A program made the position numbers and the translations under genes. Of a DNA stretch of 31,416 nt, positions 4,681 through 31,237 are shown one piece after another (the stretch's first letter is position 1; every line of letters begins with the position of its first letter). Origin of the DNA: Pseudomonadota bacterium. Its GTDB lineage: Bacteria; UBA10199; 2-02-FULL-44-16; JBDRGF01. The notes under the pieces were generated by a model. It was not told where the DNA came from. It searched no databases and saw only the letters and a list, made by a program, of their open reading frames with translations. The DNA lies in NCBI GenBank assembly GCA_043818055.1, contig JBDRGF010000076.1:1-31416 (forward strand). Direction: 5' to 3'.

Positions 4681-5076
4681 CTACTGTGTGTAATCGACCA
4701 TCAGAGTTCCTTCGCAGAGCCCACAATCAGAAATCTGCAATATAAACTGGGATGTCGAGTTGCAGGTCGTATCTCCACCTATCACTGTCACGATGCAGTT
4801 GAAGTTGTTTCCCGACCATGTGCCGTTCGTCGTACCGGGAGGGCCATCTGCAATAGTCCAGGTAGTATCATCGGTGGCATATTCCTGTGGCGTGCACGTA
4901 CCACTTGCATATATCCCATTAGAATCGCTCGGAAGCCCGATGCCGGTACAGACTCCAACTTGTGTAAACATCCATCTTATGGTCGTTGTTCCATCAGCGT
5001 TTTTATCGCTCCCGCAGGAGAGCAGAGCAACAAAAAGAGATGTTAGAAAGATAAAACGAATAATTTTTGAGTTCAT
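4681..5076 (-). CDS. Cys-rich lipoprotein of unknown function
   Basis: Start MNSKIIRF at 5076 with GGAGGGG RBS; hydrophobic stretch and lipobox LLSC; six further Cys in the mature part; 131 aa. Confidence 0.75.
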   Translation of the reverse strand: MNSKIIRFIFLTSLFVALLSCGSDKNADGTTTIRWMFTQVGVCTGIGLPSDSNGIYASGTCTPQEYATDDTTWTIADGPPGTTNGTWSGNNFNCIVTVIGGDTTCNSTSQFILQISDCGLCEGTLMVDYTQ

Positions 5077-5168
5077 ATCCCCCCTCCGATTTAAGTTTCG
5101 GCCCACTTGATACTCAATTTTTATCAAGATATCAAGATTGACCACTCAATGACGATTTGAGCGAGCCA

Positions 5169-5897
5169 TTAAATCCCGCTATCAGTTGCGGAGAGCGTCC
5201 ATGTTATTGTCTCTGACATGTTCGGCTGTATCTGTCCCAGTCCAGTGTTAAGATCTATGGCCACGAAAAAACCACCATTTGCTTCAACGGTATCGAGGCC
5301 ACCAAAAAATATCTCCCCGTTTGCCGTCCCGTCCGCGTCATCCCCATCCAAAAGATTGGCGGCGACGATCTGACCGGTTGCAGGAGCACCATATGCTACA
5401 TCTCCCCATAGCTGCTCTACCTGAGTTGTGTCGATTTGTATGGCAACGCTGTACCCTCCACTTGCAGGGCCATTCTGCGCCATCACCATCATCGTACTAT
5501 CTGAGTTGACGCCGTTGGCGGCAATTGCGCCTGAGTCGTAAGTGGTGCAGAAGAGTCCCTTCAGGGCGATATACTCCATCTTTTTTGAAAAGCGGATAAT
5601 GGGAAGATTTAAAAGACAAACGCGTTGATCGGATCCATAATCAGGAGCTACAGGATTCGAAACCGAAACATTGCTTATCATGCACGTTGATCCTCCCATC
5701 CTTTCAGGTGGACTGATTTCTACTGTGATATCGATGGTGTTAGGGGAATATGCAACCATCGGCGACGGCGTACATTCAGGATCGAGTGGGATATCATCGG
5801 CTAAAGCCTCATTGGCTAATTCGGCCTCATGATGGTTTAAAAAAACCCCTCCCAGGAGGAGGCTGATTGCTATCGTTATGAATATTCCAAATTTCAT
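5169..5897 (-). CDS. Secreted pilin-like protein, paralog A
   Basis: Signal peptide ending ANEALA, 4 Cys, GLFCTTYDS, DGDDADGTANGEIFFGG, C-terminal ETITWTLSA. Clearly alignable to the proteins at 15093-15818 and 17192-17839. Confidence 0.7.
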   Translation of the reverse strand: MKFGIFITIAISLLLGGVFLNHHEAELANEALADDIPLDPECTPSPMVAYSPNTIDITVEISPPERMGGSTCMISNVSVSNPVAPDYGSDQRVCLLNLPIIRFSKKMEYIALKGLFCTTYDSGAIAANGVNSDSTMMVMAQNGPASGGYSVAIQIDTTQVEQLWGDVAYGAPATGQIVAANLLDGDDADGTANGEIFFGGLDTVEANGGFFVAIDLNTGLGQIQPNMSETITWTLSATDSGI

Positions 5898-6026
5898 CTT
5901 GGATATGTTATATCATCATTCTCAATCGCTGTCTATCGCTGTGAATGTCCATTCGAGACAAGTGATCGAAAGACCGTGAACCTGACAGATCCCGATTGTG
6001 GCACAGTGGGAGAGAGACCACACTCT

Positions 6027-8648
6027 TCACTCTGTTGCTCCATTGCCATTGCACTTATCTGTTATCCGGATATCCATTTGCTCAATAAAAGATTTCTCCG
6101 GCACTTTGATATCAAGATTGGTTTTATCACTTATACACATTTTCGGAGGAAGATTTTTGATGATCAGTTTGAATTGACCGGGAATTAGATCTTTGATCCA
6201 GTAATAGCCTTCACTATCAACATTTGATTCATGCTCTCCCAGCATAACAATGAGCGGCTGTAGTTTTACTTTGATATCTCCCTCAATAGATACCTTCCCC
6301 CTCAATGAACGGATAGGCTTAAACAAGAAGTTCACCACATATTCCTGATAATCTGAAATTTCGATCCTCTTCTGAATATCACTCACTGGCTCTATGTCAT
6401 CGGGAATGTCTGCAGAATCCAGCCAAAGCGAGGCCTCCCCCTTCTCAACCCCCTCGAATATCGCTCCATCCCTGACATTATGGAAAGTTCTTATACTGCC
6501 GCTTGAGTCTTTAAGATTGAGTTTCGGAAGCGAAATGGAATAATCCCCCTCATCAGATATGCCGTTATCATTCACATCCATGATGAGTTGAACTCTCAAA
6601 GTCGCCCTGGGTAATATAAATGGGAAAAAAAGATTCTCGGCATTATCACCCGTTATTGTCAGACTCTGATCCGGCACCCCACTCAACAGCTTGAGCGCGT
6701 CAGAGCTGACTGTCACATCATGATCGCCAACGCTTACTCTCGAAAATATAAACCTCCCATGGGCATCCGTAACCTCCCGGTTCTTTCCATCGATCCTGAC
6801 GTTGACACCGGTAAGGGGCACATCGCCTTCATCAAATCTTCCATTGTAATTATTATCTATAAAAACCATCCCCTCGACCTTTTGATTTTTGCTCCCTGTA
6901 AACAATCCTTTAATAAGAGAATCGCTTTCGATTCCGGGGCCAAAGTACTGCCGATAAGAGATTCTCAAACTGCCGATGAATCTGCTCACCCCTGTATATG
7001 AATATGAATTGGAAGCTGAGAGTGCGAGGCGATGCAGTGAGGTGACTTGGAAATCCAGGGAGGGCGAAAAGGACAATTGATGATTATTGCCTCTAAATCC
7101 CTGCTTTGTGTAAGTCAGGTTAAAACGCAAACTCATCCTTCGAAAATAAAAATCGGTCGATGCGTTTAACCTCGCGCCATCTGAATTATTGCTTCCTCTG
7201 CTATACCAGGCGTTTGCTCCGATATCCAGATATCTTCCTCCAGTTTCAATCCTGAGATCACTGGTCCAATCAACCCTGTTTAAGGAACCCTTAAGATCCT
7301 CTCGATTATATGTGACGTTATTCATAAGGTATGAATTCATGCCAATAGGTTGATTAAAAAAAAGTGTAGTATAGTTTGCAAGGAGAGTGCCATCGGCCGT
7401 CCTTTTTGATACCGATTGTCTTAAGCCGTAGCTGTTTTTAAATGCGGGTCTGCGCTGATATCCCAAACTAAAAGTCAGGTTGTCGGTGCTTCCGAACGCG
7501 GCGACATCGAGATTAATATCATGTAACAATGACGCAGATAAAAAACTAATCTGATCCTTCAGTTCCTGTTGAGTAGAAAACTCGTAGTGATGACGGTCGC
7601 TGGTCGTCCGCGTCCCTGAAAAATCCATCAACCCCTTCTTTACAAAATAATATTTGGCCGAAGTATAACCCTTCTCATTTTGAAAAAAAGGCAGCACCTG
7701 TGCCGCAAAACCCCCTTTGGAAACGTACCCCCCTGCGCCCAATGAGAAAAAGTCCTCGTAGAGATAATTCCCCTCGAGAGAACCTGCAAAATTGTAATCC
7801 TTACGATCTGTCGGTTGAAATGTGACAAAACCCACATTTATCAAATTGGGATAGCGCACATCAGCTCTAGGCCCCTGCACAAAATAGTTAAATCCCGCCA
7901 CCCTTCCCTCATCCTTTATCTTTGAGAGATCCGGGGGCTGATCCACACCTCCAAAAATTTCGAAGGTCGCTTTATAATCATCATCGAAAGGATGATAAAA
8001 ATCCTTAAAATAGAAATTCGTACCCAGAAACGAAACACCGGAAAGGACCACAGACTGAAACCGGTTCATAGAAAAAGATGAGTTTCCAAATGTAAATCTC
8101 ACCTTGTCATTGATATATGTTGATCTGACCGATGTCACCTTTCCATCATGCAAACCGCTATGTGTAAAGACAGTATTCCCCGTAAAGCTGGCCTTTCCAG
8201 AACTCCACTGCATTCCCATGTTATGTGTATATTGGGGATTTAAAAAAAAATAATCGTTTGAATAATTTGAAGTATTTGAAAAATCGTAGATAAAATATGG
8301 CTTTCCAAGTTTAAACCTTGGGCTATCCATCCTGAACCCTAATGTCTGGGGGGGTAACACAGCAATTTCGACGGCATCCAAAAGGCCATCTTTCCAATAG
8401 AGGAGCTGTGTTCTTCCGATCTGCAGGGCCAAAATCGTTACAGATGACGATTTTTCACTTAAAATCTTAATCACTGTATCGTCAGCAGCAAAAAAACCCG
8501 ACCCTACAACAGATATCTTTTTCTTCTGGCCGAGACCAAGCTGAACCTCATTCATCTCATCTTCTATCTTATCTTCAGCTGAATAGAGAGTGCTCGAAAT
8601 TCCGAGAAGAAATGAAAAAAAAACAATCAGGACAACAACACGGATCAC
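6027..8648 (-). CDS. Usher-like outer membrane protein: N-terminal pilus-formation (T2SS/T3SS pil_N-like) domain, beta-barrel region, C-terminal SdrD-B/carboxypeptidase-regulatory-like domains
   Basis: Signal peptide; VQLGLGQ...ADDTVIKI...VTILALQIGRTQLLYW; long aromatic amphipathic beta-strand region; VEGMVFIDNNYNGRFDEGDVPLTGVNV...TDAHGRFIF; MDVNDNGISDEGD; DSEGYYWIKDLIPGQF. Start overlaps the stop of the chaperone-like gene. Confidence 0.6.
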   Translation of the reverse strand: MIRVVVLIVFFSFLLGISSTLYSAEDKIEDEMNEVQLGLGQKKKISVVGSGFFAADDTVIKILSEKSSSVTILALQIGRTQLLYWKDGLLDAVEIAVLPPQTLGFRMDSPRFKLGKPYFIYDFSNTSNYSNDYFFLNPQYTHNMGMQWSSGKASFTGNTVFTHSGLHDGKVTSVRSTYINDKVRFTFGNSSFSMNRFQSVVLSGVSFLGTNFYFKDFYHPFDDDYKATFEIFGGVDQPPDLSKIKDEGRVAGFNYFVQGPRADVRYPNLINVGFVTFQPTDRKDYNFAGSLEGNYLYEDFFSLGAGGYVSKGGFAAQVLPFFQNEKGYTSAKYYFVKKGLMDFSGTRTTSDRHHYEFSTQQELKDQISFLSASLLHDINLDVAAFGSTDNLTFSLGYQRRPAFKNSYGLRQSVSKRTADGTLLANYTTLFFNQPIGMNSYLMNNVTYNREDLKGSLNRVDWTSDLRIETGGRYLDIGANAWYSRGSNNSDGARLNASTDFYFRRMSLRFNLTYTKQGFRGNNHQLSFSPSLDFQVTSLHRLALSASNSYSYTGVSRFIGSLRISYRQYFGPGIESDSLIKGLFTGSKNQKVEGMVFIDNNYNGRFDEGDVPLTGVNVRIDGKNREVTDAHGRFIFSRVSVGDHDVTVSSDALKLLSGVPDQSLTITGDNAENLFFPFILPRATLRVQLIMDVNDNGISDEGDYSISLPKLNLKDSSGSIRTFHNVRDGAIFEGVEKGEASLWLDSADIPDDIEPVSDIQKRIEISDYQEYVVNFLFKPIRSLRGKVSIEGDIKVKLQPLIVMLGEHESNVDSEGYYWIKDLIPGQFKLIIKNLPPKMCISDKTNLDIKVPEKSFIEQMDIRITDKCNGNGATE

Positions 8649-9604
8649 TTTAATACCACTGTCCTCTCGATTGGCGGTAGTTTGATTTTAGTGCTGACTA
8701 CGGTTAGAATTGCCTTATAACTTCCTGCCGGGATATCTTTCACGACCGGTTGAAAATTCACATCGTTGATGCCACCGGGAATAACAGTTACATTCCCTTC
8801 CGTCTTCATCCTTGCCACCACATTACCATCCTTCATCAGTATCAAAAGTGGAGAAAACTTAAGTTCCGCGTTTCCTGTATTCTGAAATACAGCCCGAGCG
8901 CTCACAGGGAGATTCCCTTTCTTGGAAAGAAGCTTCAGATCTTTCAAAGCCAAGGCATAATTCAATGTTCCCTCCACATTGAGCAGTACCCTCACGTCAA
9001 TAGCTGCCTGCATACCCACGCCGACGCTCTTAACATATTCTGTGGATTTCAGCGCTTCACCGCTTGGAGCCTCTCCACCCGCACTAAAACGCAGCCTCAT
9101 ATACTGGCTTCCTTTTAACGATGAAGGAACAACAAAGCTGATTGTCATATTCTTATGACTTCCAGCAGGAATTATGAGAGTTTTCGCTTCCAAAGTGATA
9201 TTTCTGGCGATATTATCAGGTGGCAACGAGGGAATCGGTTTTATCTGTAATTTTCCATCGCTTCCGAGCACAACGCCGACGGGCGTGATGAAGGCCTGAA
9301 GAGGATATTTTCTGCTAGGGTTGTCAACCTTGACCGTAGTCGAAACCTGAGTGCCCGCTTTTCCCGAAATCTCTATTGAAGGAGGAGAGACCCCGATCGC
9401 AGCCATACCGAACTGCGCTGCTTCGGGTGTAGCTCCTTTCGACGCTTCCTTGGGAGCTTCGGCTTCACCCTTAACAGAACTATCAGCCGGCGTTCTTCCT
9501 TTTCTCTTCGGACTCTTCGCGAAGGCATCCATGCAGCCAAATACAAGAAGTAGCGTCAATACCAACGACAAAGACAAAGACAAAGACAAACATCTGTTTT
9601 TCAT
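8645..9604 (-). CDS. Periplasmic two-Ig-domain pilus chaperone-like protein (PapD-like or DUF916/DUF3324-like)
   Basis: Signal peptide; IGVSPPSIEI...VKVDN; IIPAGSHKNMTISF; second domain FQNTGNAEL...TVIPGG...IPAGSYKAILTV. Lies between the pilin-like and usher-like genes. Confidence 0.6.
   Translation of the reverse strand: MKNRCLSLSLSLSLVLTLLLVFGCMDAFAKSPKRKGRTPADSSVKGEAEAPKEASKGATPEAAQFGMAAIGVSPPSIEISGKAGTQVSTTVKVDNPSRKYPLQAFITPVGVVLGSDGKLQIKPIPSLPPDNIARNITLEAKTLIIPAGSHKNMTISFVVPSSLKGSQYMRLRFSAGGEAPSGEALKSTEYVKSVGVGMQAAIDVRVLLNVEGTLNYALALKDLKLLSKKGNLPVSARAVFQNTGNAELKFSPLLILMKDGNVVARMKTEGNVTVIPGGINDVNFQPVVKDIPAGSYKAILTVVSTKIKLPPIERTVVLK
9567..9590. repeat. In-frame hexamer repeat (GACAAA)x4 encoding Leu-Ser repeats in the signal peptide
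   Basis: gacaaa x4 seen directly. Confidence 0.9.
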
Positions 9605-9613
9605 GTCATCTCC

Positions 9614-10216
9614 TTAAATTGCGCTTGTGGTTAAACGAAACCTGTCTGTTATCTTTCCGCTCTGCTGCGGCGAAATCTCAAGCAACATCCTCAGGGTTAT
9701 AGTATTGGCACCGGAAAGCACATCTACTCTGTTAAACTGAGGATATGTATATATCACATCTCCGATGTCAGATCTGTTTGTGGAAAGGGAGTAATAGCTG
9801 TTGCTGAACGAGCTGGGAGAGGCATAGAGTCTGGTAAGCTCAACCCCCACGGAATCGATACCGCTGAAGATGATCGCCACGTTCAAAACAGCCTCCAGAA
9901 CAAGATTCCCTTTGTCATTTAAAAAAGCGTCTCCATTTGAAACTAATTCAGGATGTGTGAATGCTACATTTCCAAAATCTACCGCGTCGCCCGTTAAAAT
10001 CGTCGACTTTCCAAACTGGTTTGATCCTCCGGAAAGAGTTATCTGTATTGTCGGGTTGACCGTAGCACCCATTTCAACTTGTGAGTCATTTGCCGTCTGC
10101 CCGAATAAAACGATAACAGATTTCGGAAACAAAAACGAAATAGCGATAAACAATATCAAACCCGAAACTCTTTTTAAATTTTTTATTGAAAAAGAAAATT
10201 TATGTAGACAATTCAT
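9614..10216 (-). CDS. Secreted pilin-like subunit (Csu/spore-coat-U-like pattern)
   Basis: Hydrophobic leader; SQVEMGATVNPTIQITL (donor-strand-like alternation), AVDFGNV, C-terminal SGKITDRFRLTT. First gene of a tightly packed three-gene operon. Confidence 0.55.
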   Translation of the reverse strand: MNCLHKFSFSIKNLKRVSGLILFIAISFLFPKSVIVLFGQTANDSQVEMGATVNPTIQITLSGGSNQFGKSTILTGDAVDFGNVAFTHPELVSNGDAFLNDKGNLVLEAVLNVAIIFSGIDSVGVELTRLYASPSSFSNSYYSLSTNRSDIGDVIYTYPQFNRVDVLSGANTITLRMLLEISPQQSGKITDRFRLTTSAI

Positions 10217-10251
10217 AGTTGATATATATAAATGTATATTAGATTTTATTC

Positions 10252-10334
10252 AAGTTTTAAATTGGGGGCTTCGAAAAATAGGGAGATGTTACAGCTCTTT
10301 TGTTAAAAATTTTTCAGAAGTTTTAAATTGGGGG
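10252..10334. promoter_or_regulatory. Two 17-bp direct repeats (AAGTTTTAAATTGGGGG) in the divergent promoter region
   Basis: Identical copies at 10252-10268 and 10318-10334, 66 bp apart; the second overlaps the likely RBS of the ABC ATPase. Confidence 0.6.
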
Positions 10335-10339
10335 ATACC

Positions 10340-11245
10340 TTGATAGAAGTCAGTGCGCTTGATCATTACTTCGGCAACTTCCACGCACTTAAGAATATAA
10401 GTTTTTCTGTTCCATCCGGTCAAATCACAGGTTTCATCGGACCGAACGGAGCAGGAAAATCCACCACTCTTAGAGTCTTGTCCGGTTTTTTAGTACCGAT
10501 GAATGGTGAAGTTATTATAGATGATATTCCATTATTTAAAAACCCGATGGAGGCGAGAGAACGAATTGGCTATGTGCCAGAAGTTCCGCAACTTCACAGG
10601 GAGATGCAAGTCGATGAATATTTAAACTTTGTGGCGAATCTAAAAGGCATCTCCAAAAAAGTTTTTAATATACAACTAGATGAAATCACAACGAAATGTG
10701 GGCTCTCTAAACTCAAAAAACAGCTTATCGGCAACCTTTCCAAAGGAAACAGGCAGAGGGTAGCGCTTGCTCAGGCTTTTATAGGAAAACCAACAGTTTT
10801 ATTGCTCGATGAACCGATGTCCGCAATGGATCCCGTTCAGACTATGAGCTCAAGGGAGCTGTTAAAAAATCTCTCTAAAAACACAACGATACTGATATCT
10901 TCCCACATCCTCTCCGAGATATCGCAATTGTGTGACCACCTGATTTTAATCTCCGATGGTGAGATTAAATATCAGGGCCCTGTAAGTGAGATCTATGCAA
11001 CTTCAAAAAATGGCAAAATTGTGGAATTAAACTTCTTTTCAATGAACGACGATTGGGCAGATAAGGTCAAAAAACTGCCCGAGTGCACACTTATAAGCAG
11101 AGAGGGCTCAACACTTCAGGTTGAGATTTTCGATGAAGCGGTATTTCTACAGAATCTTTTTGAATTAACAGCGAAACACCATATACCGCTTAGAGAGGTT
11201 GCATCCAAGATGCACAAACTGGAATCGTTTTTTAGGGGGAATTAG
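10340..11245 (+). CDS. ABC transporter ATP-binding protein (GldA-like)
   Basis: Walker A GPNGAGKST, signature LSKGNRQRV, Walker B LLLDEP, SSHIL. Start probably TTG at 10340 after GGGGGA; the ORF track starts at 10328. Confidence 0.93.
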   Translation: MIEVSALDHYFGNFHALKNISFSVPSGQITGFIGPNGAGKSTTLRVLSGFLVPMNGEVIIDDIPLFKNPMEARERIGYVPEVPQLHREMQVDEYLNFVANLKGISKKVFNIQLDEITTKCGLSKLKKQLIGNLSKGNRQRVALAQAFIGKPTVLLLDEPMSAMDPVQTMSSRELLKNLSKNTTILISSHILSEISQLCDHLILISDGEIKYQGPVSEIYATSKNGKIVELNFFSMNDDWADKVKKLPECTLISREGSTLQVEIFDEAVFLQNLFELTAKHHIPLREVASKMHKLESFFRGN

Positions 11246-11248
11246 CCG

Positions 11249-12016
11249 GTGAAGAGCAAGACATTTACAATCGCATGGAATGAATGGAAGATATTCTTTC
11301 ACACACCTTTTGCCATGCTTATCATCCCGCTCTTTATAGCCCTTTGCAGTATTTATTTCTACGCAAAGCTCGACAGTTTCCTCTCCCTTTTAAACCCAAG
11401 CGACGCTGCGACCACTGTAAAAGGGCTCAATATCAACTCCTTTCTTCTGCTTCCATTCTTCAAGGATATGTTAAATGTCTTCATCTTCATCATACCATTG
11501 ATAACGATGAGAACTTTTGCTGAAGAGAAGAAGATGGGGAATTTTGAACTTCTTATCAGCTATCCTGTCAGACCTGAAAAAATACTTTTCGGAAAGTACC
11601 TCGGCGTTTTAACGATCATCCTTCTACTTTTATTATTGAGTTTTATCTATCCCCTCATCACGATAATCTTTGGCGATCCTTATCTTCCTCTGATACTTTC
11701 CACATATTTAGGTTTTTTTCTCTTCATACTGATGTACTCTGCTCTCGGGGTTTACGCATCCCTTCTAACTGAGAACCAGATCATCGCGGCCATCATCACT
11801 TATGGAGCATTTTTCGGCACATTTCTCCTGCGTTGGCTTGCTTATGTATCATTTTCACCGCTGGATAAATTTTTTCAAAATTATCTATTTGTGGTGCATA
11901 TCAACAATCTGATGAACGGCTTCATGTTCACCGGCGATATCGCCATGTATCTCTGTACTACAGGAATTATCTTAACATTGGCTTATTGGAGAATAAGGAG
12001 GCATTACGTAAGATGA
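11249..12016 (+). CDS. ABC-2 type permease (GldF-like)
   Basis: About 6 TM segments; IPLITMRTFAEEKKMGNFELLISYPV...GKYLG; SLLTENQIIAA. Confidence 0.9.
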   Translation: MKSKTFTIAWNEWKIFFHTPFAMLIIPLFIALCSIYFYAKLDSFLSLLNPSDAATTVKGLNINSFLLLPFFKDMLNVFIFIIPLITMRTFAEEKKMGNFELLISYPVRPEKILFGKYLGVLTIILLLLLLSFIYPLITIIFGDPYLPLILSTYLGFFLFILMYSALGVYASLLTENQIIAAIITYGAFFGTFLLRWLAYVSFSPLDKFFQNYLFVVHINNLMNGFMFTGDIAMYLCTTGIILTLAYWRIRRHYVR

Positions 12017-13464
12017 TTTGGTTAGGATCCATAGGAATTTTGGCATGTCTTGCGGTCATTCTGTTGAGAATTGAGCCTCAGTGGGTTCAATATCTCGCCT
12101 TTGCTGTGAGCATCTCCCTCTTCTCCCTCATTTTAATAAAGGAGATCAAATTGCCGGGGAACTTTAAAAACTGGATAAAAACAAAAACGCTATTGTTAAC
12201 TCTCATTCCTTTTTTCCTCATCACCAATCTGATCATCAGAAAATATGAGCCTGTATGGGATGTTTCCGAATACAAGAACTACTCATTCCGACAGGAATCA
12301 ATCGATTGGATTTCAAAAGTGAATGAACCTGTTGAAATAATGATCTTCTTAAAAACCGACGACAAGACATCTACCTATGCCTTGTGGCTACAGGACCAGC
12401 TGGATAAACACACAAGCTTTGTTAATGTCAAAACTTTGAACATCAACAGGGATGTATCACTTGCAAATCGCTATGGAATAACAAGCCCTAACCAGGCGGT
12501 ACTGATTTCCGGAATAAACTGGGTCAAAGTCGATAGTTTTAAAGAGGATGCTATCATCTCAGGCATGATCAAGCTCTTATCAAAACAGGATGTGACGATA
12601 TGTTTTTTGAGCGGAGATGGAGAACCCGATGTAGATGATGATTCACCTTCAGGGTTATCGGTGGTTAAATCAACCTTAACCGATATGGGTTACAAAACAA
12701 GCATCGTAGCCTTAAAAGATAAAACCAACATAATGAGCAGCTGTTCTTTGCTGATAATTATAAATCCAAAAACCTCTCTTCTCCCCTCCGAAGCAAAAAA
12801 CTTTAATGAGCTTTTGAACTCTGAGACACCCATCCTCTTCGCAGCTGGCCAGCTGGTTTCACCAGAGATGAAAACGTTGCTAAAATCTGCAGGAATCACC
12901 CTTTCTGAAGAAATCGTCATTGAGCCAAACAATGTGGAGGATAAAACTTCAGTCACAGATATCGTCCTCGAGAGATTTGAAAACCATCCAGTCAACGACA
13001 ATCTCAGTGGACGCCTGTACATGCCGGATGTTCAGCAGATACTGACAGGTACCAGCAACAAATTTCAACTCTCTAAATTGCTCACCACCCCCTTTTCGAA
13101 AGAGTATGCCCTGCTCGATGAACAAAACAGATCGAAAGAAGATACAAGCCAATCCTTCATATTAGCTGTAACGACTCAAACTGCTGAAAAAGAACCAGCG
13201 ATGGTGATATTCGGCAGCGCTGGAGCATTTCTTAACAAAAATTTGAATTTTGGAGTCAACAAGGGTATCTTTATCAATGCCATTCGCTGGTTGATAAAGG
13301 AAAATCAGGTTTCGTTGATCGCGCCAAGGGAATATTCCGAGAGGCTGATTCGCCTCGATGAGTCAGAGTCAGAATGGATTAAACGCTTATTGGTGTACGC
13401 CCTGCCCGGCTTCTTGCTCATCGTGTGCGGCTTGATCTTCATTGGCCACAGGAAAACAAGATGA
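12013..13464 (+). CDS. ABC transporter auxiliary component (GldG-like)
   Basis: N-terminal TM segments, WDVSEYKNYSF, A-x-x-YGI, FLSGDGE, IINPKTSL, NKGIFINAIRWL, C-terminal TM. ATGA overlap with the permease stop puts the start at 12013. Confidence 0.85.
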   Translation: MIWLGSIGILACLAVILLRIEPQWVQYLAFAVSISLFSLILIKEIKLPGNFKNWIKTKTLLLTLIPFFLITNLIIRKYEPVWDVSEYKNYSFRQESIDWISKVNEPVEIMIFLKTDDKTSTYALWLQDQLDKHTSFVNVKTLNINRDVSLANRYGITSPNQAVLISGINWVKVDSFKEDAIISGMIKLLSKQDVTICFLSGDGEPDVDDDSPSGLSVVKSTLTDMGYKTSIVALKDKTNIMSSCSLLIIINPKTSLLPSEAKNFNELLNSETPILFAAGQLVSPEMKTLLKSAGITLSEEIVIEPNNVEDKTSVTDIVLERFENHPVNDNLSGRLYMPDVQQILTGTSNKFQLSKLLTTPFSKEYALLDEQNRSKEDTSQSFILAVTTQTAEKEPAMVIFGSAGAFLNKNLNFGVNKGIFINAIRWLIKENQVSLIAPREYSERLIRLDESESEWIKRLLVYALPGFLLIVCGLIFIGHRKTR

Positions 13465-14336
13465 AAAAAAATCTTTTTTACATGATTTTCTTTTTTACTG
13501 TGCTCGGCATCTCCACTCTGATTTTGAACATCAGTTTTAAGAAGAAGTTGCCGAGAGTGGTGACCTGCAATCCTTTCAAAGTAATTTCCATAACGGTTGA
13601 AAATGAACAAACTCTGCCAATAGTTATCAATAAGGATTTAAATGACGGGAGATGGATAGTCTCTCAGGGTGATTTTTCTAATCTCGCAGACCAAAAGACC
13701 ATGGATATTTTTCAGAATGTGATTTGCTATATCCCATATATTGAAAAATTCGAACCCTCTGACCCCTCTCAGAATGTCAGCAAAGAATTTGGTTTTGAAA
13801 AGCTACGAAAACTCACAGCCCGGTTTGCGGATAAAAAGGACCCTGTCACGCTATCTTTCGGATCCGCAACCCCCACAGGGACTGAAATTTATACCGCTTC
13901 TTCAGTTACTCCAAAATACATCTACACGATACCCAATACCCTCGAAAACCAGATAATACCAAGCTTTATGGACATACAGTCACGCCATCCATTTGACATT
14001 GCAGAAGGGGATACAGTTACATTCGAATTTCAGGGAAGGAGATTTTTATCTGATGATATCATCCCTGTTTTAAAGGCTTTTACATGGGTCAATTATCATG
14101 GCCCGATGAAGGAGGAGGATCTCTCTGAGTACGGTTTTTTTCTCCCGGATCTTCGAATTAAAATTGAAAAAAAGAACAATTCTCAACAGGAATTTCTTCT
14201 CACAAGGCAGAATAAGAGATATTACCTAACGCTCAGAATGAATGACTATTATTACGTCCTCATCCTGTCGCCACAAGCGCCAAAACTTTTACTCGACACA
14301 CTAGAAAAAGGTATAACGCACCAGACTGCTTCCTAG
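13461..14336 (+). CDS. DUF4340-like periplasmic protein of the Gld-type ABC operon
   Basis: N-terminal TM anchor, W...ADQ, EFGF and EYGF repeats, LSFGSATPTGTEIY. ATGA overlap with the previous stop; usual fourth gene of such operons. Confidence 0.7.
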   Translation: MKKNLFYMIFFFTVLGISTLILNISFKKKLPRVVTCNPFKVISITVENEQTLPIVINKDLNDGRWIVSQGDFSNLADQKTMDIFQNVICYIPYIEKFEPSDPSQNVSKEFGFEKLRKLTARFADKKDPVTLSFGSATPTGTEIYTASSVTPKYIYTIPNTLENQIIPSFMDIQSRHPFDIAEGDTVTFEFQGRRFLSDDIIPVLKAFTWVNYHGPMKEEDLSEYGFFLPDLRIKIEKKNNSQQEFLLTRQNKRYYLTLRMNDYYYVLILSPQAPKLLLDTLEKGITHQTAS

Positions 14337-14915
14337 CATTGCTGCTTTGACCGGAATAGACATCTGTAGCCAATAGTGATCTAATACCCCTTTCCCTGCT
14401 GGATAAATATTCAGAAATTCGCCTGTCGGCAGCACATCTACATAATTTGAAGGTAATACATCAGCAAATGAATTGAGCTCATCCTTTGTAAAATCGCCAT
14501 CGCGACTCAGATAAATTTTAAATTTGCCGTAATGCTCGTACGCCAGATTCAGACGCTTTGCTCTGCCGCTCTCCTGACAGAAAAATTCCCCGGTAATCGG
14601 AGGGCCATCAAATATACTTGAAATATATCCCTCTATCGGAAAGGATATCTGATTTTTGATGGCCGTATATTGCTCTGTATAATCACCTTCGACAATCATC
14701 GTAGCGCTGTAAAGTGGCTCACTCCCCCTCTGGGGCGTGTAAAAAAAATGTACCCTTAACGCCCTCGGACCGGTAATCCTGGAATGGGGCTGGCATTGGG
14801 CGGAGATATTCCACTCTATGGATTCTGAAAGGGCTGATTTGGATTCGGATGGAAGAATAAAGAGAGAGAGTAAAATAAAAAACATCGATACAAAAATAAA
14901 AAAGTTCCTCTTCAT
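14301..14915 (-). CDS. Secreted hypothetical protein
   Basis: 204 aa with a clear signal peptide (MKRNFFIF...SKS-A) and two Cys; 36-bp convergent overlap with the DUF4340-like gene. Confidence 0.65.
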   Translation of the reverse strand: MKRNFFIFVSMFFILLSLFILPSESKSALSESIEWNISAQCQPHSRITGPRALRVHFFYTPQRGSEPLYSATMIVEGDYTEQYTAIKNQISFPIEGYISSIFDGPPITGEFFCQESGRAKRLNLAYEHYGKFKIYLSRDGDFTKDELNSFADVLPSNYVDVLPTGEFLNIYPAGKGVLDHYWLQMSIPVKAAMLGSSLVRYTFF

Positions 14916-14967
14916 CCTTCCATTATTAGAACAGCATCAATCTTGTTGCAAGATAAGAATGTGAAAT

Positions 14968-15005
14968 AAAAAACAACCCCCTCCTCATAACTCAGGAAGG
15001 GGTTG
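14968..15005 (-). terminator. Rho-independent terminator downstream of paralog B
   Basis: Minus strand reads CAACCCCTTCCT-gagttatg-AGGAGGGGGTTG followed by TTTTTT. Confidence 0.75.
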
Positions 15006-15092
15006 AATTCTGAACTTCTGAATCTGTCACTCCCTCTCTCCCCCCCAAGCTGGCCCTCATGAAATCATGCCAGCTTGTTGAGAACCTTCATC

Positions 15093-15818
15093 CTACGGAA
15101 TTGCATCAATCGCAGTAAACGTCCAGGTAATCGCCTCAGTCAGGCCATCAACGACCAGGTTGTACGCATTAAGCTCTAACCCCAGGTAAAATCCTCCATT
15201 GTCTCCATTTTCAGCATAACCGCCGAAGAAAATCTCACCATTAAAAAGACTATCACCGTCACTACCATCAGCCAGATTGAAAGCTCTAATGAGTCCATCT
15301 GCTGGAGCTCCAACTGCTAGCTCACCAAAGAGCTGCGATCCAGCCACGCTGTCTATCTGGGCAAAAACTGTTGCATCACTGCTTATGTTATCCTGGGCAT
15401 TAACTACCAAGTCTGTTGCATTCGCCCCGCTACCCTTCAAAGCAGCAGAATCATATGTTGTGCATAGCAACCCAGCCAGCTTCAGATATGGCATTTCGGA
15501 CGAGGCTTTGATCATGTCCACACCATCAAAGTAGCACTCCGTTGAATCAACTCCACCTTCACTTTCAACAGGCGTGCCAACTACTACAGGGCCAGTCACA
15601 CTACATAAGGGAATTTGCAGAATGGCCGGAGGACTTATTGTCAACGCATACGTGACACTTACAGGGGCAAAAGCCACTGGTATTGCTCCTTCGCAGCCGA
15701 CGATGATATTGGTATCAGCTGTCTCTGCAATCGCATTGTTTGCCACATCGATGTTAAGAAAATACCCTCCTACACCAAGGCAAATCGCCATCAATGTCAA
15801 TAACCATAATTTCTTCAT
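15093..15818 (-). CDS. Secreted pilin-like protein, paralog B (candidate major subunit)
   Basis: Start MKKLW at 15818 with AAGGAGGT RBS; GLLCTTYDS, DGSDGDSLFNGEIFFGG, EAITWTFTAIDAIP; has its own promoter and terminator. Confidence 0.72.
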   Translation of the reverse strand: MKKLWLLTLMAICLGVGGYFLNIDVANNAIAETADTNIIVGCEGAIPVAFAPVSVTYALTISPPAILQIPLCSVTGPVVVGTPVESEGGVDSTECYFDGVDMIKASSEMPYLKLAGLLCTTYDSAALKGSGANATDLVVNAQDNISSDATVFAQIDSVAGSQLFGELAVGAPADGLIRAFNLADGSDGDSLFNGEIFFGGYAENGDNGGFYLGLELNAYNLVVDGLTEAITWTFTAIDAIP

Positions 15819-15925
15819 AAAAACCTCCTTCTTTCTCCTACTCGTTAAAATCTGTTGGATTGGTTCCCTTCCACCTCCTTTCATCCAACCCATACTTCCT
15901 TCCAAAATCACCACTGCTCTTTAGG

Positions 15926-15942
15926 TGCATATCGCGTACCAA
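15926..15942 (-). promoter_or_regulatory. Sigma-54 (-24/-12) type promoter for paralog B
   Basis: Minus strand TTGGTACGCGATATGCA gives GG-N10-GC; IHF-like site TTTCAAGTGGTTA at 15985-15997. Confidence 0.65.
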
Positions 15943-16262
15943 AGATAAGGTGTGTGTTTTTTGATAACGGGTTTTATTGAGATATTTCAAGTGGTTATAG
16001 ATTTTTTCCAGATTTTGAATTTTTGATCTCTGCCGAAAATCTAACAGGTGGGTGAAAATGATATTTTCCACATCTTGCAACTAATTAAAATTAAGAAACA
16101 ATTTTGAGAGGTAAGTTTGGCGAAAAATTTCTACTGCCGGATCCATAGCAATTTTTTTCGAGTGTATGTATGATATTGCGACAGAGGAGTCAAAAGAGTG
16201 ACAGGAAATGAAAAACAAAAATCGGATGTAGCATGTGAGCCTGTTTCCGAACTCAGTTTACT

Positions 16263-16354
16263 CTCATCGCGGGGAGCTTTGCTACGAAGCAATCTGGCAG
16301 AAATAATTGAACTTTCTTGATCGCCACACTCGCCTTCGACTCGCTCGCGATGAC
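16263..16354. repeat. REP-like palindromic element of the GTCAT(C/T)GCGAG...GAAGCAATC type
   Basis: ctcatcgcgggg...cgaagcaatct ... gatcgccacactcg...ctcgcgatgac; imperfect inverted arms just upstream of the MNT gene. Confidence 0.7.
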
Positions 16355-16436
16355 AAATCCACTTCAACTGTTTTAAAAAAAAGATCAGAAATAGTATTTG
16401 CGCCTTAATGCAAATACATGTTACTGTAGCAGAACT

Positions 16437-16790
16437 ATGAACAAATCAAATAGAATTAAAAACCTCCTTACCGGTCAGGAACTGCGGGCAGTTTCTTTGT
16501 TTTGCGACAGATTAAAGAAAGAAACCGGGAAGCAGACACACACAATCGTGTTGTTTGGTTCCAGATCACGCGGCGAAGGCCATGAGGATTCAGATGTCGA
16601 TATATTGATCATCCTGAAGAAAGAAGATCACATAATGAAGGTCAAAATATGGGACCATGCATACAAAATCTTCGATGAAACAGATATCATGATCTCCCCT
16701 TTAGTGTTGAGCGTTGAACAATTCGAAAAACTTTTAAAACATGAAAGGCTGATTGCTTTGACTATCCGGAAAGAAGGGATCAAATTATGA
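16437..16790 (+). CDS. Minimal nucleotidyltransferase (MNT), antitoxin-like
   Basis: VLFGSRSRGEGHEDSDVDILI (GS-X10-DXD). ATG at 16437 preferred; ATGA overlap with the HEPN gene. Confidence 0.9.
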   Translation: MNKSNRIKNLLTGQELRAVSLFCDRLKKETGKQTHTIVLFGSRSRGEGHEDSDVDILIILKKEDHIMKVKIWDHAYKIFDETDIMISPLVLSVEQFEKLLKHERLIALTIRKEGIKL

Positions 16791-17179
16791 ACAATGAAAA
16801 CAAGCTTGGGAATTCAGGATTGGAAATGGAAAAAGGAAGCTCAGCGCTTGAAGAAGCTCAGATATTATTTGATAACGCAAAATACGATGGTGCGGTTTCA
16901 AGGGCTTATTACGCGGCTTTTCATTATGCCTGCGCAGCTCTGTTGAGCAAGGGACTTGAGGCGAAATCTCACCAGGGAATGCAGCGTCTTTTTCATCTAC
17001 ATTTTATCCGCACAAAGATTTTTAATAATAAGGCGGGAGTCATATTGAGTCATGCCCAAAAGGCGAGAGAAGAGGCTGACTATTATCCTGAGATCTCTTT
17101 TACTAAAGAGATAGCTGAAGAACGGTTGAATGAGGTCAAAACATTCGTAAAGCAATTACATGCCTACCTTGAATCATAA
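16787..17179 (+). CDS. HEPN domain protein (UPF0332/COG1895-like)
   Basis: SRAYYAAFH, KSHQG, FHLHFI, REEADY motifs; coupled to MNT. Confidence 0.88.
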   Translation: MNNENKLGNSGLEMEKGSSALEEAQILFDNAKYDGAVSRAYYAAFHYACAALLSKGLEAKSHQGMQRLFHLHFIRTKIFNNKAGVILSHAQKAREEADYYPEISFTKEIAEERLNEVKTFVKQLHAYLES

Positions 17180-17191
17180 AAATGTCGAAGC

Positions 17192-17839
17192 TCAATTTAT
17201 CGACACTGTCCATGTCAGGTTTTCGGTGAGACTTGCGGTGGGGGCATTGAGATTTGCCTTGATAAGACTTAATCCTCTGCTTGGAAACTCGACCGATCCG
17301 TTCTTCATGCCGTCTCCGTCCACATCATCGCCATCGCTGATCGATTTTCCAAGAAATCCATCTCTATTGCTGAATTCGGAAACACCTTCTAAAGAATCGG
17401 CAAGACGTGTTGCGTCAAACCTCTTCGAATTTGATTTTCCAACTGATATATCCAAAACTTCGTCCGGCAATTCGTCGTCACCGGATATCTTTGAATCAAA
17501 TGCCATCGGCCCTCTGCACAAAAGCCCAGTGATGCGCTTTGTAACATCCTTCACTGCTACAATTATACGATCATCATTGCGACTCAATATTTTGCATCCC
17601 AGATTTGACTCACATTCGCCTAGCTCAGCCCCTATATCGTGTTGTGTTGACAAGATAGAAATTTGCATGTCTTCGATATTATGAACAGAGATTGGTGCGG
17701 GTAAACAGCTGACAGATATTGATGTTGTCGCAGTCGCTGCATAGGCCTCTTCACCTATTTCCAAATTCCTCGATTCATACATATAATAGAATGAGAAGAT
17801 CAAAAGCATCATCGTTATCATTATATATATCTTTTTCAT
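17192..17839 (-). CDS. Secreted pilin-like protein, paralog C (more divergent)
   Basis: Leader ending IGEEAYA, TTSISVSC, GLLC, DGDDVDGDGMKNG, TENLTWTVSIN; GGGGGG RBS-like stretch. Confidence 0.65.
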   Translation of the reverse strand: MKKIYIMITMMLLIFSFYYMYESRNLEIGEEAYAATATTSISVSCLPAPISVHNIEDMQISILSTQHDIGAELGECESNLGCKILSRNDDRIIVAVKDVTKRITGLLCRGPMAFDSKISGDDELPDEVLDISVGKSNSKRFDATRLADSLEGVSEFSNRDGFLGKSISDGDDVDGDGMKNGSVEFPSRGLSLIKANLNAPTASLTENLTWTVSIN

Positions 17840-17887: not shown

Positions 17888-17904
17888 TGCATATATCATT
17901 CCAG
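17888..17904 (-). promoter_or_regulatory. Sigma-54 (-24/-12) type promoter for paralog C
   Basis: Minus strand CTGGAATGATATATGCA gives GG-N10-GC; IHF-like TTTCATTAGGTTA at 17941-17953. Confidence 0.55.
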
Positions 17905-18141
17905 CAAAAATCAGGAAAAGTTAACTAAATTAACATTGTATTTCATTAGGTTAGCCGGATAAATCAGAGACGGTTTTTGGGCACGCTAAAAGTAAGGGTA
18001 AATTGCGTATTTGCAATCCGTTGATATGCCCCATCTTTTTCGTGTGAGCTTTTAGTTGATATTTTAAAACTGCCAGGTTTTGGGCGATATTTTCCAGATT
18101 ACACCCGTTTGAGTAAATAAACACCCACAGCATAAAAAACC

Positions 18142-18219
18142 CGTGAAGCGTCCACCCGTGAAACGTGAAACGTAAAAATGCTTTTTTGGCGCTTCACGCT
18201 TCACGAACAACGCTTCACG
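18142..18219. repeat. GTGAAGC-family palindromic element, copy 2
   Basis: cgtgaagcgtccacccgtgaaacgtgaaacg-taaaaatgcttttttgg-cgcttcacgcttcacgaacaacgcttcacg. Confidence 0.9.
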
Positions 18220-18223
18220 TCTT

Positions 18224-20749
18224 TCAAAATTCCACCATAAATCCGACTGAATAAAGGGGACCTGATAGATTCAAGCCCTTTCTGCCAAAGTCATCTATCC
18301 AGTTATATTGAACCTCAATGACAAAGAAGACATCCTCAACATCGAAGTCGCTATCCGAGCCGACTAAGCTCAAAAGCGTGCCTCCTCCGCCCTGCAATCC
18401 CATTTTATGCCCTGTGATGCTACCGCTCGTCGTCCTCTCATGATATATCACGCCTCCAAATCCACCTTTGATGAATGGAATAAAATATCTCACGCCTAAA
18501 TAATCAAGCCGCCACAGAGCGTTGATCTCGAAAGGAAAGGCGAAGAAATCATAATGATCCCTCGATCTTGTGTGATCGATCTCCCCCCGCGCGATGCCGC
18601 TTTTCCAGAAAATTCCACTGCCGGCCTGAATACCATATTTTCTCTTATACAGATATGTAAAATCGAGTCGCGTTATCACATTCGTATATTGGCCGAAATA
18701 CTCCCGGCTCTCGTTCGACACCGGCATCCAGAGCCCGCTTTTAATTTCAAAACCGTATGTATGATTATCCTTGTCGATTGCAAAGGATGTGCTTGAGATG
18801 AGAATGGAAAATGTGACTATTAAAAATAAAAAACTTTTTTTTTGAAATGATTTCAAACGCTTGTGCAACAAAACAATTAGGGCTATCAGAATTACTCCTA
18901 TACTCAATCCACTATGCACTACACACTTATTCACTACAAGCTGATTTAAGGTGCACCCTTTCTCCCCCGCTCCCCCTGCAGGGCCTAACGTACGCTGCGG
19001 AGTCGCGCTGGCGGCCACGCCGCTCGAAAGAGTCCCTGTGCGGGTGAGGCTGACATTTCCCGCCTCATCCACAGCATCCATGGCGATATAATAGAGCAAT
19101 CCGTTAGTAAGCCCACTGACACTTGCTTCAACAGTCGTTCCTGAAGATGGCTGGCTCACAGTTGAACTCACATCCGTCTTCGTGAGCACAATTGCAGGAT
19201 CTGTATCAGTATAGATGTTGTAGGAACTCATATCCGCTTCTGTAAGCCTGTTGAAATTTATATAGACCCTCTGGTATCCGTAATCGGTGCTGTTGATCGT
19301 CACAGCTGGAGGAGGCGTATCGACGACGAGGGTCGTCGCCCTCCGACCGCGTTCGGCTACGGTCGTCGTGGAATCGGTGACAAAAAAGAAGATCGAGTTA
19401 TTACCCTCTATGAAGGAGGTGCTGTTGTCTGCGTAATTGAATGTCAGAGTAATATCGGTATCGGCTAATGCCGCACCCGAAGTATTTCCGTTGGAGTCTG
19501 TCATGAGTGAACCGCTGGCGTTGACATCTCCATTCGACCTCACCTCATATGTCCCGGCTGTGTCGCTTTTGAAAATGATATCGAAACTCTCTCCCAACCC
19601 AAGCTTTGAATCCCCTCCCGAATATGTTGAACCTGATGTTATTGTGATCCATGGATTGGCGGTAAAAACTCCAACGGTGAGATCGGCGTTGATGGAATAG
19701 AGATATCCGTCGCTCTTGGAGCTTGCCATCAAAAGATTTGGCGTAACCGTGGTGGGGAGCGGTTCCTTGTCCTTCGTGGGATCGGTGCCTAAGTCGAAAA
19801 CCTGATCATTTGGCGTGTTGACGATGGAGAGTCCGCCGATGCCTGCCGCGTACGCATATATGGCGCCAGTTCCTCCACCGATCGGGTTTGAAACTTCAGT
19901 GACTACGACAGATGTCGGATTCGAATTGAGCGAAATGTCGATGTCAGATTTGACTATCGAATTATTGGAAGGGTTCACGTGCACAAGATACTTGCTGGTC
20001 TGATCGACGATATAAATATTGTTGCCATTCGGGTCTGAGGCGATCGAAACGAGATTGAGCTCAGATGAAATCCCGATATTTATCATCTGTGCCTCTATGG
20101 CGCTATCGGGGATAAAGAAGAGAGCGCCGACATTTGTTGTAAAGTACGCTCCATTCACCTCTTTCACATAGACGGCATCCGTGATCGTGTAGCCGGTCTT
20201 GTCCTGAATTGTGATTGGAATTGTCGCTGTGACTTTGTTTTGAAGATAATCATAGCGGTGAACATTACGCATCGTGTTGTCCGCGATCAGCGCAATCGTC
20301 CCGTCATCATTGAGCACAACAGGGCCAAGCGAACTGCCTGCCGATATCTCGATTGAAATAGGCAGTGCAGTAATGTCGTCCATTGTATATATGAGAAGAT
20401 CCCCGTCATCCTGAGAGGCGTAGATCTTGCGGTTTCTCGAATCATAGGCGAGTCCCATGATGTTGCCATCGGTGCCATCGTCTTTCGATAAAGCCGGTGG
20501 TTGATCATCGTAGAGTGCAAATTTTCCCATGTCGATTAGTTTGAGACTTTCGGCATAAGAGATCATCATCGTGCGATCGCTTTGCAAAACCGCATCAGTC
20601 ACAGAGGATGCGATGGAAAATGAAAATGGAGGGCCGCCGGAAAATACGAGATCGGTATCAGGATAGGCGAAAGATGCCAGAGGAAAGAGAAGAAAGAATA
20701 ATAAAATCACCTGCAGAAAAAAAAGTTTTTTATATTCAGGTTTGAGCAT
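18224..20749 (-). CDS. Surface protein: beta-propeller-like + FN3 + MYXO-CTERM-like segment fused to a C-terminal outer-membrane beta-barrel
   Basis: Start MLKPEYKK at 20749 with signal peptide (ASFA); YVTN-like blades; VSGLTNGLLYYIAMDAVDEAGNVS (FN3); GAGEKGC-x-TM-HKRLK; second signal-like segment ending STSFA; barrel strands ending VGFMVEF. Confidence 0.7.
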   Translation of the reverse strand: MLKPEYKKLFFLQVILLFFLLFPLASFAYPDTDLVFSGGPPFSFSIASSVTDAVLQSDRTMMISYAESLKLIDMGKFALYDDQPPALSKDDGTDGNIMGLAYDSRNRKIYASQDDGDLLIYTMDDITALPISIEISAGSSLGPVVLNDDGTIALIADNTMRNVHRYDYLQNKVTATIPITIQDKTGYTITDAVYVKEVNGAYFTTNVGALFFIPDSAIEAQMINIGISSELNLVSIASDPNGNNIYIVDQTSKYLVHVNPSNNSIVKSDIDISLNSNPTSVVVTEVSNPIGGGTGAIYAYAAGIGGLSIVNTPNDQVFDLGTDPTKDKEPLPTTVTPNLLMASSKSDGYLYSINADLTVGVFTANPWITITSGSTYSGGDSKLGLGESFDIIFKSDTAGTYEVRSNGDVNASGSLMTDSNGNTSGAALADTDITLTFNYADNSTSFIEGNNSIFFFVTDSTTTVAERGRRATTLVVDTPPPAVTINSTDYGYQRVYINFNRLTEADMSSYNIYTDTDPAIVLTKTDVSSTVSQPSSGTTVEASVSGLTNGLLYYIAMDAVDEAGNVSLTRTGTLSSGVAASATPQRTLGPAGGAGEKGCTLNQLVVNKCVVHSGLSIGVILIALIVLLHKRLKSFQKKSFLFLIVTFSILISSTSFAIDKDNHTYGFEIKSGLWMPVSNESREYFGQYTNVITRLDFTYLYKRKYGIQAGSGIFWKSGIARGEIDHTRSRDHYDFFAFPFEINALWRLDYLGVRYFIPFIKGGFGGVIYHERTTSGSITGHKMGLQGGGGTLLSLVGSDSDFDVEDVFFVIEVQYNWIDDFGRKGLNLSGPLYSVGFMVEF

Positions 20750-20790
20750 CTTATTAATTTTTGTTGGGAATACCACCCCAAGTCTCCCCC

Positions 20791-20817
20791 GGGCAGCCAC
20801 GAGGGGCTACCCCTACA
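20791..20817. repeat. GTAG-family REP, single unit
   Basis: Minus strand TGTAGGGGTAGCCCCTCGTGGCTGCCC, a variant of the arm at 22010-22036. Confidence 0.75.
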
Positions 20818-31057: not shown

Positions 31058-31237
31058 TACGTGAAGCGTCCACCCGTGAAGCGTGAAGCGTGGGTGGATA
31101 AATTATTCTACGTGAAGCGTCCACCCGTGAAACGTGAAGCGTGGGTGGATAAATTATTCTACGTGAAGCGTCCACCCGTGAAGCGTGAAGCGTGGGTGGA
31201 TAAATTATTCTACGTGAAGCGTCCACCCGTGAAGCGT
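31058..31237. repeat. Tandem array of 3.5 x 51-bp units built on the GTGAAGC element
   Basis: Unit tacgtgaagcgtccacccgtgaagcgtgaagcgtgggtggataaattattc starts at 31058, 31109, 31160, with a partial copy at 31211; one substitution in unit 2. Confidence 0.95.

Follow-up and report, generated by a model that had tools for sequence, protein, structure and literature searches.

We examined a 31,416-nt stretch of DNA (contig JBDRGF010000076.1, assembly GCA_043818055.1, positions 1 to 31,416 of the forward strand; hereafter the window) from a Pseudomonadota bacterium, in which a cassette of ~13 kb encodes three paralogous secreted proteins, A, B and C, that are likely subunits of a divergent chaperone-usher-type pilus. 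Cassettes of this kind comprise one to three genes of the A/B/C family, a gene for a 204-aa secreted protein, an opposite-strand module of ATP-binding cassette (ABC) transporter and DUF4340 genes, and genes for a 200-aa secreted, a chaperone-like and an usher-like protein (Table 1). An earlier reading made from the letters alone (the sequence-only reading) had described A, B and C as three dispersed paralogs of an unrecognised pilin-like family, and we recovered the three open reading frames (ORFs) at the same positions. The paralogy stood: with leaders removed, A and B aligned with z = 45.8 (38% identity), A and C with z = 6.5, and B and C with z = 6.3, and none of 500 shuffles scored as high for any pair. 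The dispersal did not, as all three genes lie in the one cassette. C is a distant member, missed by tblastn with A or B at E ≤ 1; a fourth family match at E ≤ 0.001 was not found in the genome.

Table 1. Features of the cassette in the window: feature, position, strand, description.
Paralog A	5169..5897	-	242 aa; sister of B (A+B, Shimodaira–Hasegawa-like approximate likelihood ratio test, SH-aLRT, 86); downstream of usher-like gene
Usher-like outer-membrane protein	6027..8648	-	873 aa; N-terminal Ig domain, predicted ~26-strand barrel, no inserted plug, three C-terminal SdrD_B/CarboxypepD_reg-like domains
Chaperone-like protein	8645..9604	-	319 aa; putative, by profile comparison; no C-terminal membrane helix
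200-aa secreted protein	9614..10216	-	conserved, without mature Cys; 42-50% identical in four other cassettes
GldA-like ABC ATPase	10328..11245	+	TIGR03522, E 5.7e-71, 239 bits, below cut-off of 403
GldF-like ABC-2 permease	11249..12016	+	cassette-specific clade (profile match and tree)
GldG-like membrane-anchored accessory protein	11986..13464	+	ABC_transp_aux (profile match)
DUF4340 protein	13425..14336	+	PF14238, E 1.9e-9
204-aa secreted protein	14301..14915	-	two Cys; homologue in four other cassettes
Terminator-like 12-bp hairpin and T tail	14974..15005	-	after B (sequence)
Paralog B	15093..15818	-	241 aa; likely major subunit: best promoter motif, own terminator, intact N-terminal strand
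Sigma-54-type -24/-12 motif	15926..15941	-	upstream of B; 10/12 consensus positions
Paralog C	17192..17839	-	215 aa; divergent, shortened member; long branch in tree
Weaker sigma-54-type motif	17888..17903	-	upstream of C; 9/12

Alignment of the three bore out the shared elements described before: the A-x-A leader ends, an N-terminal strand ending in Cys, GL[FL]C, a DG-x-D-x-D...NG loop and a terminal E-x-[IL]-T-W-T, as well as CTTYDS, GAPA and NGEIFFGG common to A and B. Each mature protein contains four cysteines, the inner pair of C (76, 82) being out of register with that of A (72, 94). Pfam gave no match for A, B or C, and NCBIfam two weak leader matches for C and nothing else.

To place these proteins in a wider family, a six-row profile was searched against 1.84 billion proteins (E ≤ 0.001), yielding 71 clusters including the six queries. 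The resulting 73-row alignment comprised mature A, by which residues are numbered, 67 clusters and five locus proteins, a few rows being redundant (a duplicate of A and three fragments were left out). Two cysteines and an acidic loop, D-x-x-D...[ND]G, make up the family core: the Cys ending the N-terminal strand is conserved in 70 of 71 rows, the second, in G-L-x-C, in 72 of 73, and the loop residues D151 and D154 in 72/72 and 68/72 rows; P75, K78, G81, D123, N/D160 and G161 are also conserved. Two marks initially proposed for the family fell away, since four cysteines were found in 28/73 rows and two in 40/73, with only two conserved, and the TWT strand was confined to 3/73 rows, all from the window. 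The optional second Cys pair occurred complete in 27 of the 29 rows having either member. As in chaperone-usher pilins, a signal peptide, whose cleavage site was read from the A-x-A pattern, precedes an alternating-hydrophobic N-terminal extension. The leader is long: counted from the hydrophobic stretch, the Cys lies a median of 23 residues on (62 rows), and roughly half of these residues precede A-x-A. Relative to the Cys, position -4 is a large hydrophobic residue in 65/70 rows and position -2 a large or small hydrophobic one in 69/70, with polar or small residues between.

The claim that the family is unrecognised held. No Pfam match was consistent among the 73 members, the Pfam profiles Fimbrial, SCPU and Fimbrial_CS1 matched 0/73 at E ≤ 0.1, and PDB sequence searches with the A/B/C family and 200-aa profiles gave no match. 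Word-based homologue searches returned the query alone for A, and twice for the barrel; the names of 20 family matches that we looked up were uninformative, and the family tree, built in quick mode, left 29 of 65 inner branches open. A literature search, with little coverage of subscription journals, listed nothing on the family or the cassette, no ABC module in a chaperone-usher locus and no natural donor-strand disulfide.

Across 93 genomes of the phylum (UBA10199), the family was found in five, and 11/11 family genes lay in the cassette. These 11 genes sat in the search profile, yet G025, and then G076 and G077, were first found by profiles without them. Homologues occurring mostly without the usher-like gene had been named beforehand as grounds for abandoning the pilus idea; in all five family-carrying genomes the family was linked to the chaperone-like and usher-like genes and was never seen away from them. 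Three of these genomes (G025, G076 and G077) share a common order of two or three family genes, the 204-aa homologue, opposite-strand DUF4340-GldG-GldF-GldA, and then the 200-aa, chaperone-like and usher-like genes. The same parts are present in G001 in rearranged order, A has been relocated behind the barrel gene in the window, and the genes flanking the cassette differ from family to family of hosts. A further genome, G091, has the ABC, 200-aa, chaperone and barrel genes on a contig that ends in gldG, where the family genes would come. The barrel profile matched 13 genomes, of which nine were read (G002, G023, G038 and G067 were left out). Scans of genomes and of metagenomes with the 200-aa profile gave four loci each, none counted as a further genome; one (L062) was rejected as a cassette relative, being unrelated by its ORFs. 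The best-matching sequencing runs were groundwater and biofilm metagenomes.

The ABC module is inherited together with the cassette. Its GldA-, GldF- and GldG-like proteins fall short of the equivalog cut-offs of TIGR03522, TIGR03518 and TIGR03521 (239/403, 95/289 and 23/390 bits, respectively). GldG matches formed two groups, one at E 4e-103 to 2e-84 in four cassettes and one at 3e-20 or weaker elsewhere, including G001; every match at E ≤ 2e-84 adjoined an usher-like gene, in four other genomes. A GldF tree of 17 rows, built in quick mode, separated the 6/6 cassette copies, which are kin and hence not independent but span five families, from the 11 others with an SH-aLRT of 100. The cassette ABC permeases are thus a clade of their own. 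As strong GldG matches and the GldF clade were seen only in cassettes, the module tracks the A/B/C family and not the barrel as such. The module could nevertheless be a passenger of an otherwise correctly read pilus locus, with an unrelated envelope function and held in place by overlapping opposite-strand genes. Related GldA/F/G genes in 12 other loci (12 of the 14 non-cassette places were fetched, 10-13 kb each, and searched for cassette genes at E ≤ 0.001 without a match), three barrel loci without the module and the lower support of the cassette clade in the GldA tree (SH-aLRT 89 only) would fit this. Weighing the other way, the module is kept inside the cassette in six genomes of five families with differing flanks, survives the rearrangement in G001, and coexists in G076 and G077 with a second, separate GldA/F/G copy elsewhere in the genome. 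We consider a passenger role rather unlikely; action of the module on subunits in the periplasm is more likely than the pumping of a solute.

In a side observation, the other GldA/F/G clade (L064-L075) mostly follows genes for an OmpA-family lipoprotein and a TolA-binding/TPR protein (Pal-CpoB-like; scanned for L070 only), and often lies upstream of a VKOR-DsbA fusion.

We then modelled mature A from the 73-row alignment (predicted local distance difference test 88, predicted template modelling score, pTM, 0.83). The model is all-beta, with no strand in residues 1-14. The best Foldseek row was CfaB (E 6.7e-3, probability 0.92, template modelling (TM) score 0.32), and in VIA comparisons with 48,161 chains the seven best rows were all chaperone-usher pilins, at a modest Z of 5.2-5.7. 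The body of A aligned from model residue 11-14 with the first residues of extension-less pilins, as with truncated FimG (Z 6.0, root-mean-square deviation (rmsd) 3.4, 118 aligned) and N-terminally deleted PapE (Z 5.2, rmsd 3.6, 121 aligned), so that residues 1-10, including Cys 9, match the pilin extension. The earlier expectation of a pilin-like fold was supported to this extent, and A is predicted to be a pilin-like beta-sandwich with a free N-terminal segment. A itself has two prolines in its N-terminal strand, one of them two residues ahead of the strand Cys, a feature of 1/70 aligned rows, and is likely a minor or tip subunit for this reason.

The 873-aa protein was modelled from 12 rows. 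Its model shows 26 consecutive strands, the longest gap being 14 residues, followed by three C-terminal sandwich domains, and is predicted to form a large barrel in the outer membrane with N- and C-terminal periplasmic domains, as in FimD/PapC. All ten best Foldseek rows were FimD/PapC (E 2e-16), and VIA aligned 380 residues of ushers at Z 17.0 and rmsd 4.9. Canonical ushers (FimD/PapC) have 24 strands and an inserted plug domain; in the model, the missing plug insertion is surer than the strand count. None of the six barrel homologues scanned matched PF00577, while the secretin N-terminal family T2SS-T3SS_pil_N was matched, in one homologue above cut-off. In the Atlas, closer unnamed barrels (TM 0.74-0.83) occurred in Acidobacteriota, Bacteroidota, Synergistota and others, with an Usher cluster at TM 0.65. 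Given barrels of like architecture in several other phyla, usher-like systems may form a large group that annotation has missed.

A WxL connection had been proposed on the strength of the subunits' TWT strand. This part failed, as W-x-L near the C-terminus was found in 1/73 members and PF13731 in none; an Atlas feature score of 0.89 for the WxL type is a lead only. What remains is a weak link through the chaperone-like protein: 3/9 homologues matched WxLIP_PGBD below cut-off (best E 9.4e-5), the best score to a DUF916/DUF3324-type chaperone was 22.9 bits against a cut-off of 27.3, and weak PDB matches of the chaperone profile were an entry named Flagellin (E 0.023) followed by EfmWxLIP1 (E 0.03). 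PapD_N (PF00345) matched 0/9 chaperone homologues at E ≤ 0.05, and the chaperone alignment showed no hydrophobic C-terminal tail. The core idea of the sequence-only reading stands, with its WxL argument shifted, weakly, from subunit to chaperone. Of the two small secreted proteins, the 204-aa one is possibly a fourth, very distant paralog, judging from an hhalign comparison with the A/B/C family that placed both its cysteines in register (E 0.071). The 200-aa family showed no profile similarity to A/B/C, and its member here likely represents a different subunit family, serving in a minor role or at the base.

Taken together, we favour a divergent chaperone-usher-type pilus polymerising by donor-strand exchange, with a probability of roughly three in four. 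By the tests run, it would work like a chaperone-usher pilus but belong to no named pilin, usher, PapD or WxL family. Several points weigh against it. The pilin Z-scores are below 8, a range that by the tool's own account may stem from a shared arrangement alone; for A, Foldseek gave no row at E ≤ 0.001, with a low TM score for the best; and the atypical N-terminus of A means that its free segment may misrepresent the family. The barrel model has a pTM of 0.51 from its 12 rows, and porins follow close behind ushers (VIA Z 15-16, but ~270 aligned and rmsd ~8). The chaperone-like protein matches no family above cut-off, and the gene context comes from five genomes only, two of one genus. A second locus subtype in three genomes (G046, G066 and G085; L052, L053 and L054) has three small secreted genes, a similar chaperone, a ~910-aa barrel and a convergent gene, with no match to the A/B/C family or to GldG; the 200-aa type could therefore be the true client of chaperone and barrel.

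Taken further, this last point would make A, B and C a donor-strand fibre that assembles on a cation trigger and without a chaperone, in the manner of archaeal cannulae or TLP-1; the 200-aa protein would be what chaperone and barrel handle, and their place beside A, B and C would be mere co-location. The invariant acidic loop residues would suit such a fibre, as would the structural scores: the chaperone-free cannula and Hyper2 subunits and TLP-1 come nearly as high as pilins (Z 4.7-5.2), and the alignments of TLP-1a/b, at 143-148 residues, are longer than those of any pilin. However, A/B/C genes were never found apart from chaperone and barrel, a diderm needs an outer-membrane exit, and cannula loci are reported without a chaperone (PMC12518558). 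Moreover, the convergent gene beside the barrel in the second subtype, which encodes a 221-263-aa secreted protein with its own Cys pair, no Pfam name and no profile similarity to A/B/C, could be the major subunit there. We regard the cation-triggered fibre as improbable, and still less credit is due to complete, non-polymerising beta-sandwich adhesins or surface-layer units exported via the barrel. These would account for the low structural scores, for the integrin and complement domains among the rows (Z 3.9-4.7) and for a size of ~210 aa, above most matched pilins (about 130-175 aa), but not for an N-terminal segment whose alternating pattern is conserved and which falls outside the aligned body, for chaperone-usher pilins topping both VIA lists or for a chaperone-like neighbour that is always present.

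Under the favoured pilus reading, subunits would be exported by Sec and cleaved after A-x-A, the soluble 319-aa protein would complete their presumably incomplete fold in the periplasm, and the barrel with its C-terminal domains would pass them on. Polymerisation would proceed by each incoming subunit placing its N-terminal strand of ~11 residues, with hydrophobic residues at -4 and -2 and a Cys at the end, into the subunit before it. The major subunit, driven by sigma-54, would be B, and A, C and the 204-aa and 200-aa proteins would be minor ones; a cation, calcium for instance, probably binds at the acidic loop. The weakest step is that of the ABC module, which may work on periplasmic subunits, for example by freeing them from the membrane.

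The position of the strand Cys permits a bolder proposal. It keeps the phase of the alternating pattern and comes 2-5 residues ahead of where the pilin body starts, while the first disulfide Cys of Fim pilins presumably lies inside the body, near model residue 14. One full-length row (P0059) has lost both the strand Cys and the second Cys, so the two are probably partners; mutual information over the 73 rows (top z 6.2) is too weak to place the second Cys. If the first Cys does sit on the donated strand, the bond would join neighbouring subunits. We put forward such an inter-subunit disulfide with the G-L-x-C Cys tentatively, at somewhat less than even odds; an intrachain staple at the hinge is a possible alternative. 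A further extension, to a chaperone-usher pilus that is held together by covalent cross-links and has a dedicated maturation step powered by ATP, is unlikely to be right in full. In that scheme, the strand-end Cys would fill the last pocket and bond to the neighbour's invariant G-L-x-C Cys, and a dedicated GldAFG-DUF4340 complex would release the subunits, with their long leaders, to a WxLIP-like chaperone that is soluble and an usher that has 26 strands and no plug.

The assignment of B as the major subunit draws partly on its promoter. Sigma-54-type motifs before B and C were first noticed by eye, and the score threshold was picked after the fact. At 10/12 positions, motifs were found in 5/13 family-gene upstream regions, one per genome in five genomes, against a background of 0.7% of 4000 random windows. 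Only position is informative, as the motif count across the window is that of chance (6 vs 5.07 expected); sigma-70 promoters likewise numbered 28 vs 28.0. Next to the barrel gene of G077 are genes for a sigma-54 response regulator and a kinase. A metatranscriptome contig (15139-15912) lies over B at a depth of 42, compared with 3.9-11.5 for seven other listed pieces of the run, and ends 14 bases below the promoter motif; such contigs show neither level nor start, the whole stretch being covered, and this one was not used as evidence.

In the textbook scheme, chaperone-usher assembly needs no ATP and forms no covalent links, and the usher has 24 strands and a plug. The cassette departs from it in as many as three ways: its ABC clade is co-inherited, the predicted donor strand carries a Cys and the modelled barrel lacks a plug. 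The permease clade and the invariant strand Cys are new here; the co-inherited module, the 204-aa and 200-aa genes and the sigma-54-type promoter go beyond the earlier reading. Compared with FimA/FimG/FimD, CfaB/CooA, EcpA and Csu, the cassette is alike in predicted pilin body, N-terminal extension, C-terminal alternating strand and chaperone-like and usher-like neighbours. It differs in having no Pfam match for its subunits and none to PF00577 or PF00345, in its larger subunits with an acidic loop, in a predicted barrel of ~26 strands that lacks an internal plug and is flanked by an N-terminal domain of secretin type and by three C-terminal domains, and in the Cys on the extension and the ABC module inside the locus.

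According to a 2026 preprint, WxL clusters build donor-strand pili, the system being found only in Bacillota, and 96.7% of WxL chaperones have a C-terminal membrane helix (bioRxiv 10.64898/2026.10.17.759780). WxL (Elr) pili resemble the present system in a donor-strand fibre with four pocket residues, predicted here, and in chaperone homologues that weakly match WxLIP_PGBD and EfmWxLIP1. They differ in that our subunits lack the WxL motif and PF13731, our chaperone has no C-terminal membrane helix, and the host is a diderm with a barrel, where WxL pili use a sortase anchor. A diderm case with a soluble WxLIP-like chaperone bears on the kinship of WxL and chaperone-usher pili. TLP-1a/b freshwater fibrils (PMC11494351) are similar in size (236-237 aa), in a loop-rich Ig-like head and in an N-terminal donor strand (Z 4.0-5.0), but have no sequence match to the family, and their closest models are from Flavobacteriales. 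The archaeal cannulae CanA/Hyper2 (PMC12518558) are donor-strand fibres with conserved calcium ligands (Z 4.7-5.2), and acidic residues are conserved in our family too, but cannulae are chaperone-free with a jelly-roll core. Pam pili of candidate phyla radiation bacteria (PMC13278184) are likewise divergent donor-strand pili with chaperones recognised by fold alone; unlike ours, they have two-domain pilins, membrane-anchored chaperones and no usher. Flavobacterium GldA/GldF/GldG, needed for the stability of the envelope proteins GldJ and GldK (PMC9127263), have the same three-part ABC architecture, whereas here all three are below equivalog cut-offs and lie with DUF4340 in a pilus-like locus. 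For transporters of the GldAFG/DUF4340 type, the accessible part of a review names no substrate; the cassette provides a defined candidate client. As the host is uncultured, tests need heterologous expression.

Other loci provided additional observations. On the Deinococcus plasmid CP058536.1 (L063 3241-8843), a weakly matching WxLIP_PGBD gene adjoins an usher-like gene for a 1018-aa SdrD_B-containing barrel-like protein, accompanied by small unnamed genes, which suggests from sequence that the wider system type occurs outside the phylum. In G076 (L024/L025, G076:C1:2130420-2133122), the usher-like gene is split over three frames and whole in same-genus G077, indicating assembly error or decay. 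Between the ABC module and the 200-aa gene of G001 (L050 12239-18018) lie three large genes that Pfam does not match, two of which look like membrane-protein genes; around them are genes that by eye resemble sugar-modification genes, so subunit glycosylation is possible.

In the window itself, an MNT nucleotidyltransferase and HEPN pair, likely a toxin-antitoxin module and not seen in the other cassettes read, lies between C and B (16398-17179, +). An 858-aa protein (18224-20800, -), with no counterpart in the loci compared, has a propeller-like N-terminus, a weak MXAN_2561-like region and a C-terminal MXAN_2562-like barrel (all below cut-off), resembling a fusion of a sorted surface protein and its barrel. 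The ORF at 4681-5145 (-) encodes a 154-aa Cys-rich lipoprotein-like protein with three clear paralogs in the genome (E 5e-17 to 8e-13), no Pfam match and no homologue seen in the other cassettes read; it was rejected as a paralog of A/B/C (z -0.5 to 2.2). Short repeated DNA at 18140-18225, with loose ends from many contigs, and a repeat at about 31100-31240, which is a repeated peptide in an ORF, are both likely dispersed repeat elements. An AlbA_2/HATPase_c_4/winged-helix protein, of a type often linked to mobile elements or defence, is encoded at 2331-3650 (-), and a 644-aa protein with RTX calcium-binding repeats (PF00353) at 270-2204 (+).

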